Source: Acutalibacteraceae bacterium
Lineage (GTDB): Bacteria; Bacillota; Clostridia; Oscillospirales; Acutalibacteraceae
DNA length: 24,558 nucleotides
Assembly (NCBI GenBank): GCA_045649445.1
Contig: JAZRPX010000190.1
Coordinates: 1-24,558 of the forward strand
Reading direction: 5' to 3'
Below are positions 6,556 through 13,914 of the stretch, one piece after another. The position numbers were made by a program, and so were the translations under genes. Positions within the stretch are counted from its first letter, which is position 1; each line of letters opens with the position of its first letter. The notes below the pieces were generated by a model. It made no database searches. It was not told where the DNA came from and worked only from the letters and a program-made list of their open reading frames with translations.

Positions 6556-9441
6556 TTATTTTACCTTAACTTTTTGTATTTGACTCCAAGCAGAATAAGC
6601 TTTTTGTTTGCTGTTTACTATCATTGCTCTAGCTTGCACTTGATAATTTCCTTTTTTGAGCTTTTTGATTGTTTTTGTGATACTCTTTTTAGTAGTAACA
6701 TTAACTGTTTTCCATTTTCCTTTAAGTTTGTATCTTATTTGGAATCCTGTTGCACTATCAACTTTTATGTATTTAACTTTAAACTGTTTTTTGCCTTTTG
6801 TGAGTTTGATTTTAGGAACTTTTAAAGTTAATTTAGCAATAATGCTACCGTTTGCGATAGTTTCGTTACAAGTTTCACAAACCGTATCACCAGTGTAACC
6901 ATCTGTAAAGTAGGTAGTTGCTTTTTCGTTTTTAATTACTAATTTATGACCTAATGCATCGATAACTTCTTGTTTAACCAAAACTTCATTGCAAACTGAA
7001 CAATGCTTACCTTCAGTTAAACCAGTTGTAGTGCATGATGGCGCTACTGCTTTGTCTGTAACCTCTGTATGACCAAGTTCTTTAACAACTTCTTGTTTAA
7101 CCAAAACTTCATTGCAAACTGAACAATGTTTACCTTCGGTTAAACCAGTTGTAGTGCATAATGGCGCTACTGCTTTGTCTGTAACCTCTGTATGACCAAG
7201 TTCCTTAACAACTTCTTGTTTAACCAAAACTTCATTGCAAACTGAACAATGCTTGCCTTCAGTTAAACCAGTTGTAGTGCATGATGGCGCTACTGCCTTA
7301 TCTATAACCTCTGTATGACCAAGAGCGGTGTTTTCAATTTTCCTTATATCTGTTTGTGAGCAACGCTCGCATTTTGCTGTTTCTGTTCTGTCTTTTAAAC
7401 ATGTTTCATCATTATTTGAAGTGTAAATTTTAAAATCATGTAAAACACTATACTTGGTTTTGTTTTTTATTAACTCAGTTATTAGTTCTGCATTTTCACA
7501 GTTAACATTTACCGTTACATTATCATCAAAGTTAAATGCATTATATATAATTCTTGTTGAACTTCCGGTAATATTAACGTTTTCTAGTGAATTACAACTC
7601 GCAAAAGCAAGGTCATATATGGTTTGAACTCTTTCCGGTACTGTTATGTTTTTTAACGATTTGCAATACCTAAATGCATAATGCAAGATATAATTTAAAC
7701 TTTCAGGTAAAGTTATTTCTGTTAATGAAGTGCAATTTTCAAATGCACTTTGATATATATCTGTTATACCTTCAGGAATTTTTACATTATCTAATGAGCT
7801 ACACCCACGAAAGGCAAATGAATCTATAAAAGTTACACTATCTGGAATTATAACTGTTTTTAAATTTTTACAATTTTCAAAAGTGCTCATTTCTATTCTC
7901 TTAATGTTATCTGATAATACAACACTTTTCAAGCAATCCCAACCAGAAAAAACAGCGTCGTTGATTTTTTTAATTTGATTTGGAATTATTAAATCAACAG
8001 TTAATTCGTTGTTTATATAAAAATTTTCAGCTTCGCTTAATGGACTTCCGTAACCAGAAAAATTAACATTGCACCATGCATTGAGGTCTGATATATATAC
8101 ATCAGTTAATTCTGGACATTCTTTTAAGGCGTTATTATAAAATTTTTCAACTGATTTAGGAACATGAATTTCTTTTAAAGACTTGCAGTATGCAAACGCT
8201 AATTCGCCAATCTCAATCGTTCCTTCTGGGATTACAATGCTTGTGATTTTATAGCAACCATAAAATCCACCTTCTTCAATAATCTCAAGATTTTTAGGAA
8301 GATTTATTTCAAGTAATGAACAACCATGAAAAGCATCGTTTTCGATTAAAGTTATTCCATCAGGAAGGTTTATTTCTTCTAACGAGTCACAAAGAGAAAA
8401 AGCACAACTTCCTATTGCTTTTACGCTATCAGGGATTTTAATGTCTGTTAATGCTTTGCAACCAGTAAACATTGATGATTCAATTTCTGTTATACCTTCT
8501 GGAATAACAACGTTATTTAACGTTTCACAATGTTCAAAAGCTGCACCATCAATATTTATTACACTTTTAGGTATTTCAATATAAGATAATTTTTTGCATT
8601 TTGAAAATGCACGAATGCCAATACTAATTAAATTTTCGCTAAATGTTATATTTTTCAATTCGTTGCAATTAGCAAATGCATTTATGAAAATGTATTTTAA
8701 ACTTTTAGGCATAACAACACTGGTTAGTTTTTTGCAATCTTGAAATGCTGACTCGGCTATTGTTATTACGCCTTCTTTGATAGTAAATTCGCCTTCGATT
8801 GTTTCTTTTGCTTTAACAAGATAATTGCCAATGTATAAAACATCATTTGCCCAATTGTTTTCATCATTACAATATGAAGTATTGTCAAATGCACCCATTC
8901 CAAAATTTTTAATATTATCAGGCAAGTTAATATTTTTTAAAGAAACACAATTTCTAAAGGCATAATCGCAAAGGGTTTCTAAATTAGAAGGAAATGTAAT
9001 ATCGCATAATTTTTTGCAGTTATCAAATGCATAATAACCAATTGATTTTATGTTTTCAGGCAAAACTATTTTCTCTAATGATGAACACTTTTCAAAAGCA
9101 TAATTATCAATAGTAGTTACTGTATTAGAAATTACTACTTCAGTTAATGAGGTACAGCCAAAAAACGCTTTTTCACTGATATTAGTTACTCCTGATTCAA
9201 TAACAACTTTTTTTATAAGTTCTTGGTCAGAATACCAAGGCCCTTCATATGAAAAGAACATCATCTTACCAGTGCCGCTTATTGTTAATACTCCACTTTC
9301 TTTATCTAATGTCCAAATGATATCACTGTCAAGTGTGCCACACTCTCCCGTTCTTATTTCTGCACTTACGGGAATGCTTACTAAGGTTAGCGTTGATAAA
9401 AACAACACCAAACTTAATAAAATAGATAACACTTTTTTCAT
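6556..9441 (-). CDS. Secreted/surface protein: signal peptide, BspA-type LRRs, Cys/His-rich tandem repeats, basic C-terminal FN3-like domain
   Basis: Signal peptide MKKVLSILLSLVLFLSTLTLVSIPVSA; many 23-aa I.IP.SV..I...AF..C..L repeats; three 41-aa repeats; C-terminal KVPKIKL...ATGFQIRY...YQVQARA; RBS AGGAGG at 9451-9456. Confidence 0.9.
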   Translation of the reverse strand: MKKVLSILLSLVLFLSTLTLVSIPVSAEIRTGECGTLDSDIIWTLDKESGVLTISGTGKMMFFSYEGPWYSDQELIKKVVIESGVTNISEKAFFGCTSLTEVVISNTVTTIDNYAFEKCSSLEKIVLPENIKSIGYYAFDNCKKLCDITFPSNLETLCDYAFRNCVSLKNINLPDNIKNFGMGAFDNTSYCNDENNWANDVLYIGNYLVKAKETIEGEFTIKEGVITIAESAFQDCKKLTSVVMPKSLKYIFINAFANCNELKNITFSENLISIGIRAFSKCKKLSYIEIPKSVINIDGAAFEHCETLNNVVIPEGITEIESSMFTGCKALTDIKIPDSVKAIGSCAFSLCDSLEEINLPDGITLIENDAFHGCSLLEINLPKNLEIIEEGGFYGCYKITSIVIPEGTIEIGELAFAYCKSLKEIHVPKSVEKFYNNALKECPELTDVYISDLNAWCNVNFSGYGSPLSEAENFYINNELTVDLIIPNQIKKINDAVFSGWDCLKSVVLSDNIKRIEMSTFENCKNLKTVIIPDSVTFIDSFAFRGCSSLDNVKIPEGITDIYQSAFENCTSLTEITLPESLNYILHYAFRYCKSLKNITVPERVQTIYDLAFASCNSLENVNITGSSTRIIYNAFNFDDNVTVNVNCENAELITELIKNKTKYSVLHDFKIYTSNNDETCLKDRTETAKCERCSQTDIRKIENTALGHTEVIDKAVAPSCTTTGLTEGKHCSVCNEVLVKQEVVKELGHTEVTDKAVAPLCTTTGLTEGKHCSVCNEVLVKQEVVKELGHTEVTDKAVAPSCTTTGLTEGKHCSVCNEVLVKQEVIDALGHKLVIKNEKATTYFTDGYTGDTVCETCNETIANGSIIAKLTLKVPKIKLTKGKKQFKVKYIKVDSATGFQIRYKLKGKWKTVNVTTKKSITKTIKKLKKGNYQVQARAMIVNSKQKAYSAWSQIQKVKVK
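6955..7323 (-). repeat. Three in-frame 123-bp tandem repeats (41 aa, LGHTEV.DKAVAP.CTTTGLTEGKHCSVCNEVLVKQEV...)
   Basis: Anchor gaccaag/gacctaa recurs at 6948, 7071, 7194 and 7317, exactly 123 bp apart. By eye about 8 differences between the two right-hand copies and about 3 between the two left-hand copies outside the last four codons. Confidence 0.97.
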
Positions 9442-9475: not shown

Positions 9476-9636
9476 CAAAAAAGTGCGCAACCGAAGCCAC
9501 GCACTCAAAAAACACATGGCTCTGATTGTCGCGACACAAACTACACTTCCCAGACAGGTATGTAAAACGAGCCTGTGCTTTTATCAACAGACAAAAGCAC
9601 ACACCTACCTTAAGAAATCATTCAGTTTATGTCGCA
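9476..9636 (-). ncRNA. Structured leader/small RNA, copy 1 (four-helix rod + intrinsic terminator); family unidentified
   Basis: P1 9635-9624/9542-9531; P2 9618-9611/9552-9545; P3 9610-9606/9560-9556; P4 9601-9590/9585-9574; terminator AGUGCGUGGC-UUCG-GUUGCGCACU-UUUUU (9505-9477). Homologous to 13516-13678. Mismatches on + are G-U pairs on -. Confidence 0.72.
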
Positions 9637-9641
9637 AGAGT

Positions 9642-9670
9642 ATTTTACCATATTATTTTTAATTTTTCAA
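9642..9670 (-). promoter_or_regulatory. sigmaA-type promoter of RNA copy 1
   Basis: TTGAAA(9670-9665), 17 nt, TAAAAT(9647-9642) with extended TG; same position and spacing as in copy 2. Confidence 0.72.
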
Positions 9671-9767
9671 GAGGAATTAAGTTGAGATTTTCTTCACTGT
9701 GCTTCTCTGGATAAAATGAAGGGCTTATTAGTAAAAAAGCCGAATGAGCAAAATAAAGTTTTTTCAT
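9645..9767 (-). CDS. Unannotated 40-aa ORF MKKLYFAHSAFLLISPSFYPEKHSEENLNLIPLEKLKIIW
   Basis: AGGAGG (9780-9775) 7 nt before ATG 9767; lies downstream of a near-consensus promoter (9847-9819); stop TAA at 9647-9645. Below the ORF-track length cutoff. Confidence 0.5.
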   Translation of the reverse strand: MKKLYFAHSAFLLISPSFYPEKHSEENLNLIPLEKLKIIW

Positions 9768-12408: not shown

Positions 12409-13188
12409 ATGAGAATTTTAGCGCTTGGCGATGTTGTCGGCAGTGTTGGTTGCAATGCGCTTGAGAAAGTTTTGCCAAGATTAAAGGCAGACAAAAACAT
12501 TGATTTTTGTGTTGCAAATGGTGAAAACTCGGCAGACGGAAACGGAACTTTATCACAAAGTGCCGAAATGCTTTTTTCGATCGGTGTTGATGTTATCACA
12601 GGTGGAAATCATACTTATCGTCGCCCTGAATTTTTGCCTTATCTAGATGAAAATGAGTTTATTATTCGCCCTGCAAACTTTCCTGATAACGCAGCAGGCG
12701 AGGGCAGTTGTGTTTATGATATGGGTAGATGCAAGGTCGGTGTTATAAACCTTTTAGGTGTTGTTTATTTAGAGCCATTAGCAAACCCGTTTGAAACAGT
12801 AGATAAAGAAATTGAAAAGTTGAAAGATGAAAATTGCAACATCATTTTAGTTGATTTTCATGCAGAAGCAACGAGTGAGAAAAAAGCAATGGGCTTTTAT
12901 GTTGATGGCAAAGTTTCGGCGCTTTTTGGTACGCATACTCATATTCAAACAAATGATTTGCAAATTCTTGAAAACGGCACAGGGTATATAACTGATCTTG
13001 GAATGTGTGGACCAAAAAATTCGGTTTTAGGCGTAAAACCTGAAATTATAATTTATAAATTAAAAAATCACCTTCCTGCAAGATTTGAAAATGCAGAAGG
13101 TGAGTGTATTATAAACGGCGCAATTTTCGATGTTGACGAAAAAAGCGGTAAATGTTTAAATACAGAAACAATTTCAATTGAAATATAA
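12409..13188 (+). CDS. ymdB: YmdB-like metallophosphoesterase (TIGR00282 type)
   Basis: GDVVG, NGENSA, TGGNH, RPANF, DFHAEATSEK, GTHTHIQT, TDLGMCG. Confidence 0.93.
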   Translation: MRILALGDVVGSVGCNALEKVLPRLKADKNIDFCVANGENSADGNGTLSQSAEMLFSIGVDVITGGNHTYRRPEFLPYLDENEFIIRPANFPDNAAGEGSCVYDMGRCKVGVINLLGVVYLEPLANPFETVDKEIEKLKDENCNIILVDFHAEATSEKKAMGFYVDGKVSALFGTHTHIQTNDLQILENGTGYITDLGMCGPKNSVLGVKPEIIIYKLKNHLPARFENAEGECIINGAIFDVDEKSGKCLNTETISIEI

Positions 13189-13218
13189 AAACGAGTTCCT
13201 TTTGGAACTCGATTTTTT
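13187..13218. terminator. Bidirectional terminator (GAGTTC/GAACTC family)
   Basis: AAAAA-CGAGTTCC-TTTT-GGAACTCG-ATTTTTT between convergent ymdB and the 92-aa gene. Confidence 0.85.
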
Positions 13219-13495
13219 ATACCACAAAACCATCATTATTCATTGATTCATAAGCCATTCTTGACCCTAAACTATACCCATCTGTAAACACAATCTTTTC
13301 CCAAATAGTTGTCATTTCACTGTGGCTTTCTTTATACTTTTCAAATTGTTCTTTTTGCTTATCTGAAAGCATATTAAGAAATTTTTCTTCGTTTTTATCA
13401 ACAAGTTGCATTGCTTCTTTTAGTTGTTTGTTTTCTGCAATAGAGCGCTCGTTAACCGAAATGTTTCCATAAAATAATTCTTCTAAAACTTTCAT
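13217..13495 (-). CDS. Small hypothetical protein resembling DUF6809 family
   Basis: MKVLEELFYGNI N-terminus and F..GYSLGSRMAYE C-terminus match my recollection of DUF6809; RBS GGAGG 13509-13505. Confidence 0.65.
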   Translation of the reverse strand: MKVLEELFYGNISVNERSIAENKQLKEAMQLVDKNEEKFLNMLSDKQKEQFEKYKESHSEMTTIWEKIVFTDGYSLGSRMAYESMNNDGFVV

Positions 13496-13515
13496 TTAAA
13501 AATTCCTCCAAAAAT

Positions 13516-13678
13516 AAAAAAGTGCGCAAGCAGAGCTTACGCACAAAAAACGCATTGCTCCAATTGCTGCGACACAAGTTTTCGACCAAACATAAGAGAA
13601 TGTTGAAAAAGAGCATGCGTTTTTATGAAAAACAAAAACACACTCTCCGTTGTTTGATCATATTAACTTATGTCGCAA
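13516..13678 (-). ncRNA. Structured leader/small RNA, copy 2
   Basis: P1 13677-13665/13580-13568; P2 GAUCAAACA/UGUUUGGUC; P3 GGAGAGUG/CAUUCUCU; P4 UGUUUUUG/UAAAAACG; terminator GUGCGUAAGC-UCU-GCUUGCGCAC-UUUUUU (13544-13516). Confidence 0.72.
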
Positions 13679-13682
13679 TAAT

Positions 13683-13711
13683 ATTTTAACATATTACTAT
13701 TATTTTTGCAA
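13683..13711 (-). promoter_or_regulatory. sigmaA-type promoter of RNA copy 2
   Basis: TTGCAA(13711-13706), 17 nt, TAAAAT(13688-13683) with extended TG. Confidence 0.75.
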
Positions 13712-13764: not shown

Positions 13765-13784
13765 GAATGACACGCACCACCCTT

Positions 13785-13851
13785 GTCATCCTGAGCGGAG
13801 CAACGCGTAGTCGAAGGATCTTAAAGATGGTTCGGCTACGCTCACCATGAC
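13785..13851. repeat. Inverted pair of GTCAT-type REP-like elements (REPIN-like unit)
   Basis: GTCATCCTGAGCG...TAGTCGAAGGATCT facing AGATGGTTCGGCTACGCTCACCATGAC; each arm has its own internal stem (ATCCT/AGGAT versus ATGGT/ACCAT). Confidence 0.7.
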
Positions 13852-13876: not shown

Positions 13877-13914
13877 AAAACACACGGGTTGAATTTCAAC
13901 CCGTGTGTTTTTTT
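13877..13914. terminator. Intrinsic terminator at the end of the catabolic operon
   Basis: AAAACACACGGGTTGAA-T-TTCAACCCGTGTGTTTT, perfect 17-bp arms abutting the MBL stop codon. Confidence 0.9.

Follow-up and report, generated by a model that had tools for sequence, protein, structure and literature searches.

A 24,558-nt stretch from a metagenome-assembled genome (MAG) of an Acutalibacteraceae bacterium (GenBank assembly GCA_045649445.1, contig JAZRPX010000190.1, positions 1 to 24,558; hereafter, the window) raises a question about a structured RNA and the gene behind it. Does this RNA, here termed copy 2, work together with the 92-residue DUF6809 protein encoded immediately downstream, or is that protein one of many products placed under its control? 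An original prediction, made from the letters of the DNA, had proposed that a promoter–RNA–terminator unit spreads or is shuffled as a module in front of unrelated genes, and that the small protein could be its cognate partner, as an antiterminator, a toxin or an antitoxin. The present analysis favors, at a probability of about 0.72, the reading that copy 2 is a cis-acting leader of approximately 165 nt from a terminator/antiterminator family and that the DUF6809 gene is regulated cargo, not a factor that the RNA needs. Judged from its sequence, the leader has the look of a device that turns downstream genes on or off.

All coordinates refer to the whole window, and every element of copy 2 lies on the minus strand (13217-13711). 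A promoter scan identified a sigma-70-type, TG-extended promoter at 13683-13711, composed of the -35 box TTGCAA (13711-13706), a 17-nt spacer with the TG element, and the -10 box TAAAAT (13688-13683). The leader RNA that follows (~168 nt, 13516-13683) is a full-length match to the covariance model described below. Its minimum free energy (MFE) is −61.3 kcal/mol (z = −6.1), and none of 200 dinucleotide shuffles was as stable. The leader ends in an intrinsic terminator (13516-13544) that consists of a GC-rich, 10-bp stem-loop with a UCU loop (13544-13522) and a U6 tract (13521-13516). As read from the sequence, the ribosome-binding site (RBS) GGAGG (13505-13509) starts 6 nt past the first T6 run and stands 9 nt before the ATG at 13495, which opens the cargo gene (13217-13495, Pfam PF20648). 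Since both the RBS and the ATG are so close behind the U-run, a separate cargo promoter has no room in copy 2. This arrangement bears out the earlier description of an RBS about 6 nt past the U-tract that is followed by an acidic, helical protein of 92 residues (pI 4.9, all-helical model).

The leader unit, its family and its cargo genes

The unit can be delimited by comparison with copy 1 (promoter, leader and terminator at 9477-9672, minus strand). BLASTN aligns copies 1 and 2 over 203 nt at 72% identity (E 1e-19). In a pairwise alignment, the stretch between the -35 box and the U-tract is 65% identical, compared with 32% upstream and 45% in the AT-rich stretch around the RBS, and BLAST found no significant similarity between the 300-nt flanks of the two copies. 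On these alignments, the unit common to copies 1 and 2 is exactly promoter, RNA and terminator, as had been proposed for homology that begins at the -35 box and stops after the U-tract. The copy 2 promoter also aligns with the promoters of copy 1 and of a third copy found by BLASTN on contig C250, and it thereby belongs to the conserved module.

A covariance model of the leader (R1) was built from 26 sequences. Copy 1 matches R1 with 132.7 bits, and copy 2, itself a member of the seed, with 144.9 bits (E about 1e-24, model positions 1-167). With R1, five copies were detected in the MAG and approximately 100 copies in 43 of the 150 genomes of a GTDB-family sample, with up to nine per genome. 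Apart from the MAG, the genus is represented by a single species (G157), which contains no R1 copy. The wide sample came from an exact-pattern scan with the terminator consensus over 185,579 species genomes, which gave at least 80 loci; its figures apply among the matches listed. All 80 of the loci listed hold full-length family members, with R1 scores of 53-158 bits, and the MAGs that carry them are labeled Oscillospiraceae, Acutalibacteraceae, Ruminococcus, Ruminiclostridium, Eubacteriales or Clostridia and originate from ruminant, rabbit and human guts. Rfam 15 returned no match to any family for the whole window at gathering thresholds. With E values up to 10, both leader copies again matched no family; the best sub-threshold matches reached at most 18 bits, far below gathering scores, with the exception of caiA (23.6 bits, E 0.097) on the spacer and RBS after copy 1. 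A literature word search on the motif and cargo of the leader RNA returned nothing relevant. By these homology searches, the leader is a genuine member of a large and widespread RNA family that is absent from Rfam. The lowest E value among all sub-threshold matches belongs to an isolated CRISPR-DR42 match in Rfam (27.6 bits, E 0.07, below the gathering score), which lies at 13463-13489 on the plus strand, inside the DUF6809 open reading frame (ORF), and is taken as chance.

Several members of the family stand in tandem arrays, with three units at L051 (912-1566) and G108:C25 (25548-26224), two at L027 (1507-1880), and a further array at L194 (1149-1596). Every unit of an array comes with its own promoter and terminator, and a single cargo gene follows the array. 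Some RNA copies, such as those at L040 and L181, have no ORF behind them.

The five copies of the MAG head five different genes. Copy 1 precedes the gene for a 961-residue BspA-type leucine-rich repeat (LRR) secreted protein (6556-9441, minus strand) and copy 2 the DUF6809 gene. Copy 3 (L002, 436-1486; G000:C250) precedes a very divergent second DUF6809 gene (27.6 bits, just over the 27-bit cut-off) that has its own terminator and is followed on the same strand by lexA. The remaining two head the genes for a 169-residue protein of unknown function and a 259-residue protein with a C-terminal membrane anchor. Elsewhere the picture is similarly varied. Among 37 cargo proteins of the family sample, Pfam assigned LRR_5 to 7, an XRE-type helix-turn-helix (HTH) to 3 and DUF6809 to 2, both of them from this MAG; among 69 from the wide sample, it assigned LRR_5 to 13, XRE HTH to 3, and DUF6809, AMP-binding and SLH to 2 each. 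Of 75 cargo ORFs taken from the wide sample, 36 have, by a crude rule, a signal- or lipoprotein-like N-terminus. BspA-type LRR proteins are thus the commonest cargo, followed by other secreted proteins, lipoproteins and XRE regulators.

The relationships among the RNAs do not follow those of their cargo: the closest RNA relative of every copy in the MAG is in another genome and has another kind of gene behind it. Copy 2 is 79-80% identical to the leaders at L194 and L157. The cargo of L157 is a zinc-ribbon membrane protein, and the L194 leader is the upstream unit of a tandem pair, the second leader of which heads an XRE gene. Copy 3 is 82% identical to the leader at L024, which also has XRE cargo. 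When a conserved regulator gene was sought upstream, the neighbors of the RNA copies proved heterogeneous. Separately, RNA copy 5 (L057, 1823-3145; G000:C197) lies directly downstream of a surface protein gene, whose product has Cys-rich repeats and a basic C-terminal domain, and both are paralogs of the C-terminal part of the LRR protein behind copy 1.

The proposal of one leader with interchangeable cargo is thus well supported. A module with swappable cargo, as first suggested for this locus, is consistent with the bounded homology, the five genes behind five copies, the approximately 100 copies in 43 of 150 genomes, and nearest relatives that head different genes. The cargo is indeed diverse; to call it unrelated was too strong, as DUF6809 recurs: both DUF6809 genes of the MAG carry the leader, and 2 of 69 cargo proteins elsewhere are DUF6809.

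A cargo so rich in adhesin-like surface proteins brings to mind the cyclic di-GMP (c-di-GMP) regulons of Clostridia, in which such proteins are abundant, and with them the idea that the leader is a divergent riboswitch for c-di-GMP or for another known second messenger. The distribution of GGDEF proteins disfavors a c-di-GMP signal. No GGDEF match is found in the MAG, which is 83% complete and carries five copies of the RNA, and GGDEF occurs in 16 of the 43 RNA-bearing genomes (27 have none), compared with 68 of 150 overall. As no Rfam riboswitch model matches the leader either, this idea is barely credible.

Helices of the leader and the proposed switch

The secondary structure of the family was analyzed by scripted pair counts in alignment columns, made on 47 distinct family sequences and repeated on 84 sequences of the independent wide sample, and by duplex energies calculated per sequence for 46 family members and compared with shuffles. 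In copy 2, the closing helix P1 is formed by a 5′ arm, UUGCGACAUAAGUU (13665-13678), and a 3′ arm, AACUUGUGUCGCAG (13567-13580). In the MFE fold, the segment X1 (13632-13643), the 5′ arm of the apical hairpin P3, pairs with the segment Y, AUAAAAACGCAUGCUC (13611-13626). Y has an alternative partner in X2, GGAGCAAUGCGUUUUUU (13545-13561), with which it would cross P1, and X2 can instead pair with the 5′ arm of the terminator (T5′) as an antiterminator. The five consecutive segments therefore allow four mutually exclusive helices (X1:Y, Y:X2, X2:T5′ and the terminator), which is the architecture of a multi-tier attenuator.

The column counts are consistent with conservation of pairing in P1, in Y:X2 and in the terminator. 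P1 is paired in 97.7% and 98.9% of cases in the two sets, with double changes at 8 of 11 pairs and slid controls at 26-55%. The corresponding values for Y:X2, which has the consensus AAAAAYRCAKKCUC with GRAGYUAUGYRUUUUU, are 91.2% and 91.6%, with double changes at 7-8 of 14 pairs and slid controls at 37-64%. The terminator is 99% paired, with double changes at 7 of 9 pairs. X2:T5′ is paired in 93.7% of cases and shows double changes at 2 of 8 pairs, with slid controls at 12-62%. Covariation of P1, Y:X2 and the terminator, together with a conserved antiterminator complementarity, is thus shown at the level of sequence comparison.

The energies agree with this pattern. Median duplex energies are −13.6 kcal/mol (z −3.5) for X1:Y, −15.6 kcal/mol (z −4.7) for Y:X2, −12.5 kcal/mol (z −3.4) for X2:T5′ and −14.6 kcal/mol for the terminator; in copy 2 itself, Y:X2 reaches −19.0 kcal/mol and X2:T5′ −11.6 kcal/mol. 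In nested folds, the P1/P2/P3 rod lies approximately 20 kcal/mol below the Y:X2 state without P1 in all 41 sequences folded. Because Y:X2 crosses P1, it must therefore form as a pseudoknot beside the rod, which would cost the apical hairpin only, and the Y:X2 pseudoknot state and the apical-hairpin (X1:Y) state are roughly iso-energetic. When the rod and P1 were enforced in truncated folds, X2 paired with the terminator 5′ arm in 17 of 41 members, including both window copies, and the unconstrained MFE fold of copy 1 also contains the antiterminator. As a side observation, the sequences of P1 and the terminator co-vary between members (L039, L056, L106, L114 and others): an ACCACAC/GUGUGGU P1 tends to occur with terminators of the GUGUGUG/CACACAC type, and a GCGACAC P1 with GUGCG/CGCAC. 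This correlation could reflect subfamily ancestry or an additional interaction between P1 and the terminator.

From these helices, we infer that the leader acts in the manner of a terminator/antiterminator attenuator that is gated by a pseudoknot-type pairing. The leader would move as a unit together with its TG-extended promoter, which looks constitutive, and its intrinsic terminator, and this unit stands directly before the RBS of very different genes. In one state, X1:Y would form the apical hairpin within the long P1/P2 rod; with Y held by X1, X2 would be free to capture the emerging 5′ arm of the terminator, and read-through into the DUF6809 gene would follow. In the other state, Y would pair with X2, the terminator would form, and the transcript would stop short of the RBS by 6 nt. 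A conserved bulge leaves the GCUC tail of Y exposed, and this tail could act as a toehold for the exchange. We likewise infer the direction of switching, that the RNA regulates in cis in vivo, and that a ligand exists.

Several observations weigh against this reading. The evidence for X1:Y consists of its energies, as X1 is too poorly aligned, both by MAFFT and by the covariance-model alignment, for column counts. The crossing of P1 by Y:X2 was judged sterically feasible by reasoning. The analysis found no ligand or factor. Chance is an unlikely reason for the presence of the leader at both DUF6809 genes of the MAG, and this finding is only partly accounted for. Finally, the conserved terminator sequence, the promoter within the repeat, the tandem arrays and the copies without genes would also fit a small RNA that acts in trans.

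This last alternative holds that each copy is an independent small-RNA gene, which might pair with targets or titrate a protein, and that cargo is expressed by incidental read-through. Its appeal lies in a promoter that belongs to the conserved unit, in a terminator whose very sequence is unusually conserved, in array units that each have a separate promoter (three at L051, two at L027, three at G108:C25), and in the copies that precede no ORF. Most copies, however, have an RBS and a start codon approximately 15-35 nt past the U-tract. In the five copies of the MAG the RBS lies 6-25 nt and the start codon 18-35 nt past it, and the start codon of most foreign copies is found 15-35 nt past it. 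Because most copies have no room for another promoter, expression of the cargo must pass the terminator. Moreover, the X2:T5′ complementarity and the covariation of Y:X2 would have no obvious purpose in a small RNA that is constitutively terminated. Acting in trans as the sole role is accordingly considered unlikely, though an alternative of some weight; both roles may also be combined, with the terminated leader acting in trans as well.

DUF6809 and the surroundings of copy 2

If DUF6809 were the cognate antiterminator or autoregulator of the leader, and as such controlled all copies in trans, the two should occur together. Some facts point in this direction. Both DUF6809 genes of the MAG are RNA-led and account for two of its five leader copies, and two further RNA–DUF6809 modules exist in other species (L126 and L144), each with its gene alone between housekeeping genes in contexts unlike that of the window. 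Two of ~101 foreign cargo genes, against ~0.05% of genes overall, amount to an enrichment of approximately 40-fold (P about 1e-3), a rough estimate in which relatives are not independent. The wider distribution argues the other way. The 30 DUF6809 loci with the best scores in other genomes have no R1 match, nor, with filters off, have 34 further DUF6809 loci from RNA-bearing genomes and the same-genus genome, a search in which both positive controls were recovered. The share of DUF6809 genes with the RNA upstream is thus 0 of the 64 loci tested in other genomes. Among the genomes G001-G150, 18 have both RNA and DUF6809, 25 only the RNA, 38 only DUF6809 and 69 neither; approximately 16 with both would be expected by chance. 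With no DUF6809 match at E values up to 1e-3 in 25 of 43 RNA-bearing genomes, and co-occurrence at the level of chance, the RNA cannot depend on DUF6809 as an obligatory partner. In a protein tree, the L126 and L144 proteins are sisters (99/97) and the two proteins of the MAG stand apart, such that the four RNA-led proteins do not form one clade; this tree does not exclude a single origin and is also compatible with several captures. DUF6809 genes elsewhere typically lie in mobile-element contexts, beside TnpV-like, serine recombinase, ribbon-helix-helix (RHH) and XRE genes, and the structural model, a plain helical hairpin, has no recognizable RNA-binding fold or relative. Taken together, a cognate role in trans is highly improbable, and this part of the original prediction is not retained.

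Within the sampled genomes, the linkage of DUF6809 to the RNA is shown to be lacking outside a few loci and the cargo to be diverse, and by its counts DUF6809 is a recurrent, enriched and minor cargo class. Read most simply, orphan chromosomal DUF6809 genes form one of several classes repeatedly put under the leader.

A related proposal is a toxin–antitoxin-like module in which DUF6809 is the toxin and the RNA the antitoxin. In type III toxin–antitoxin systems, the antitoxin is an RNA, and a terminator behind it determines how much RNA is made relative to toxin; copy 2, with a promoter, a structured RNA, a terminator and a small gene in succession, resembles this ToxIN-type layout. DUF6809 genes elsewhere are, in addition, tightly regulated and accompanied by XRE or RHH genes. 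The same RNA, however, also heads genes for lipoproteins, LRR surface proteins, XRE regulators and enzymes; no short tandem repeats within the leader emerged from a repeat scan; and the 64 DUF6809 genes above manage without the RNA. Nor does DUF6809 have a nuclease-like fold or relative. Neither a toxin nor an antitoxin role for the small protein is supported by this comparison, and such a module has only the slightest chance of being correct.

The protein itself is a clear family member. The 92-residue product matches Pfam DUF6809 (PF20648) with 77 bits (cut-off, 27 bits) over profile positions 1-84 of 85 and carries the N-terminal LEELYYGN-like and C-terminal GF.LG motifs of the family. It contains 17 Asp and Glu residues and 12 Lys and Arg residues. 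The AlphaFold2 model (pLDDT 84) is all-helical, with four helices arranged as a helical hairpin after two short helices. The protein has no sequence match in the PDB, no PHROG and no Foldseek match in the PDB, and the AlphaFold database clusters that it matches are uncharacterized only. Nothing in the modeled structure or in its relatives suggests RNA binding or nuclease activity. Of 201 family genomes, 82 carry PF20648, with approximately 190 genes in total and up to 10 per genome; a search of the genome collection with the single DUF6809 protein returned no confirmed relatives, and a literature search on the name DUF6809 found nothing. Upstream of the DUF6809 genes at L059, L060 and L064, a stretch that translates as ..VVVCVCVAK.. 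is conserved between genomes; it is probably part of the same mobile-element backbone and not an R1 RNA.

The surroundings of copy 2 are as first described, between ymdB and the terminator of a catabolic operon and beside REP-like repeats. The ymdB gene (12409-13188, plus strand) is convergent with the DUF6809 gene, and a bidirectional terminator hairpin (13192-13211, both strands) serves ymdB on the plus strand and the DUF6809 gene on the minus strand. Upstream of the copy 2 promoter lies the terminator of the catabolic operon (13877-13911), and between the two is a REP-like dispersed repeat (13784-13851), which is context outside the module. At least 20 further copies of this repeat (86-96% identity, ~40-70 nt) are present in the 1.75-Mb MAG. 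They are found on C5, C243, C130, C19, C250 and other contigs, including one approximately 240 nt upstream of RNA copy 3, and show no specificity for RNA copies. No XRE gene and no credible ORF is found upstream of copy 2, in line with the earlier observation that an equivalent of either is missing; an ORF there (13885-13700) was discounted, as its GTG start lies inside the terminator stem of the upstream operon and it has no RBS. The same-genus genome G157 has no DNA-level match to the ymdB region. Sequencing runs listed for this DNA are partial matches in animal-gut metagenomes, with no RNA run among them.

Significance and comparison with known systems

If the leader is a switch, it would represent a widespread orphan regulatory RNA of Oscillospirales-type Clostridia of the rumen and gut, present in approximately 29% of the sampled family genomes. 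One shared signal would then control many genes for surface proteins, lipoproteins and small accessory proteins, and identification of that signal would provide a handle on surface remodeling in uncultured gut bacteria. A portable promoter–leader–terminator cassette would also be an unusual route for the spread of a regulatory input to unrelated genes. For the locus in question, an attractive but wrong lead, DUF6809 as the partner protein, is removed and replaced by a testable statement, namely DUF6809 as recurrent, tightly regulated cargo. A bolder version, which we hold to be distinctly speculative and rather doubtful, is that the family is a new ligand- or protein-responsive class of riboregulator that coordinates a mobile surface and accessory regulon in gut Clostridia, with orphan chromosomal DUF6809 genes repeatedly recruited to it because the protein would be, in some lineages, a dosage-sensitive effector or feedback component of the same response.

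Among known systems, the PyrR-controlled pyr leaders of Bacillus subtilis share with this leader the multiple tiers of exclusive helices, the intrinsic terminator just before the regulated gene, and an upstream hairpin that decides whether the antiterminator forms. In contrast to the pyr leaders, the leader described here matches neither the Rfam model of the PyrR binding site nor any other leader model, its cargo is not that of pyrimidine metabolism, and it is a multi-copy module with its own promoter that stands before unrelated genes. A second likeness is to the pseudoknot-gated transcriptional riboswitches of the ZTP and fluoride type, in which pairing comparable to that of Y with X2, a segment just 5′ of the terminator, crosses P1 and competes with the expression platform. 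Unlike in those classes, P1 of the leader, at 11-14 bp, is very long and its sequence is conserved, no coherent metabolic theme unites the cargo, and the promoter is conserved within a unit that occurs in up to nine copies per genome, some in tandem with separate promoters. ToxIN-like type III loci resemble copy 2 in the order of promoter, structured RNA, terminator and gene with an RBS right behind; they differ in that the leader has no repeat-array antitoxin, its cargo is mostly secreted, and DUF6809 has no nuclease features. Finally, other DUF6809 genes of clostridial mobile elements lie beside TnpV, recombinase, RHH or XRE genes, whereas those of the window, L126, L144 and C250 stand alone between housekeeping genes, under the leader.

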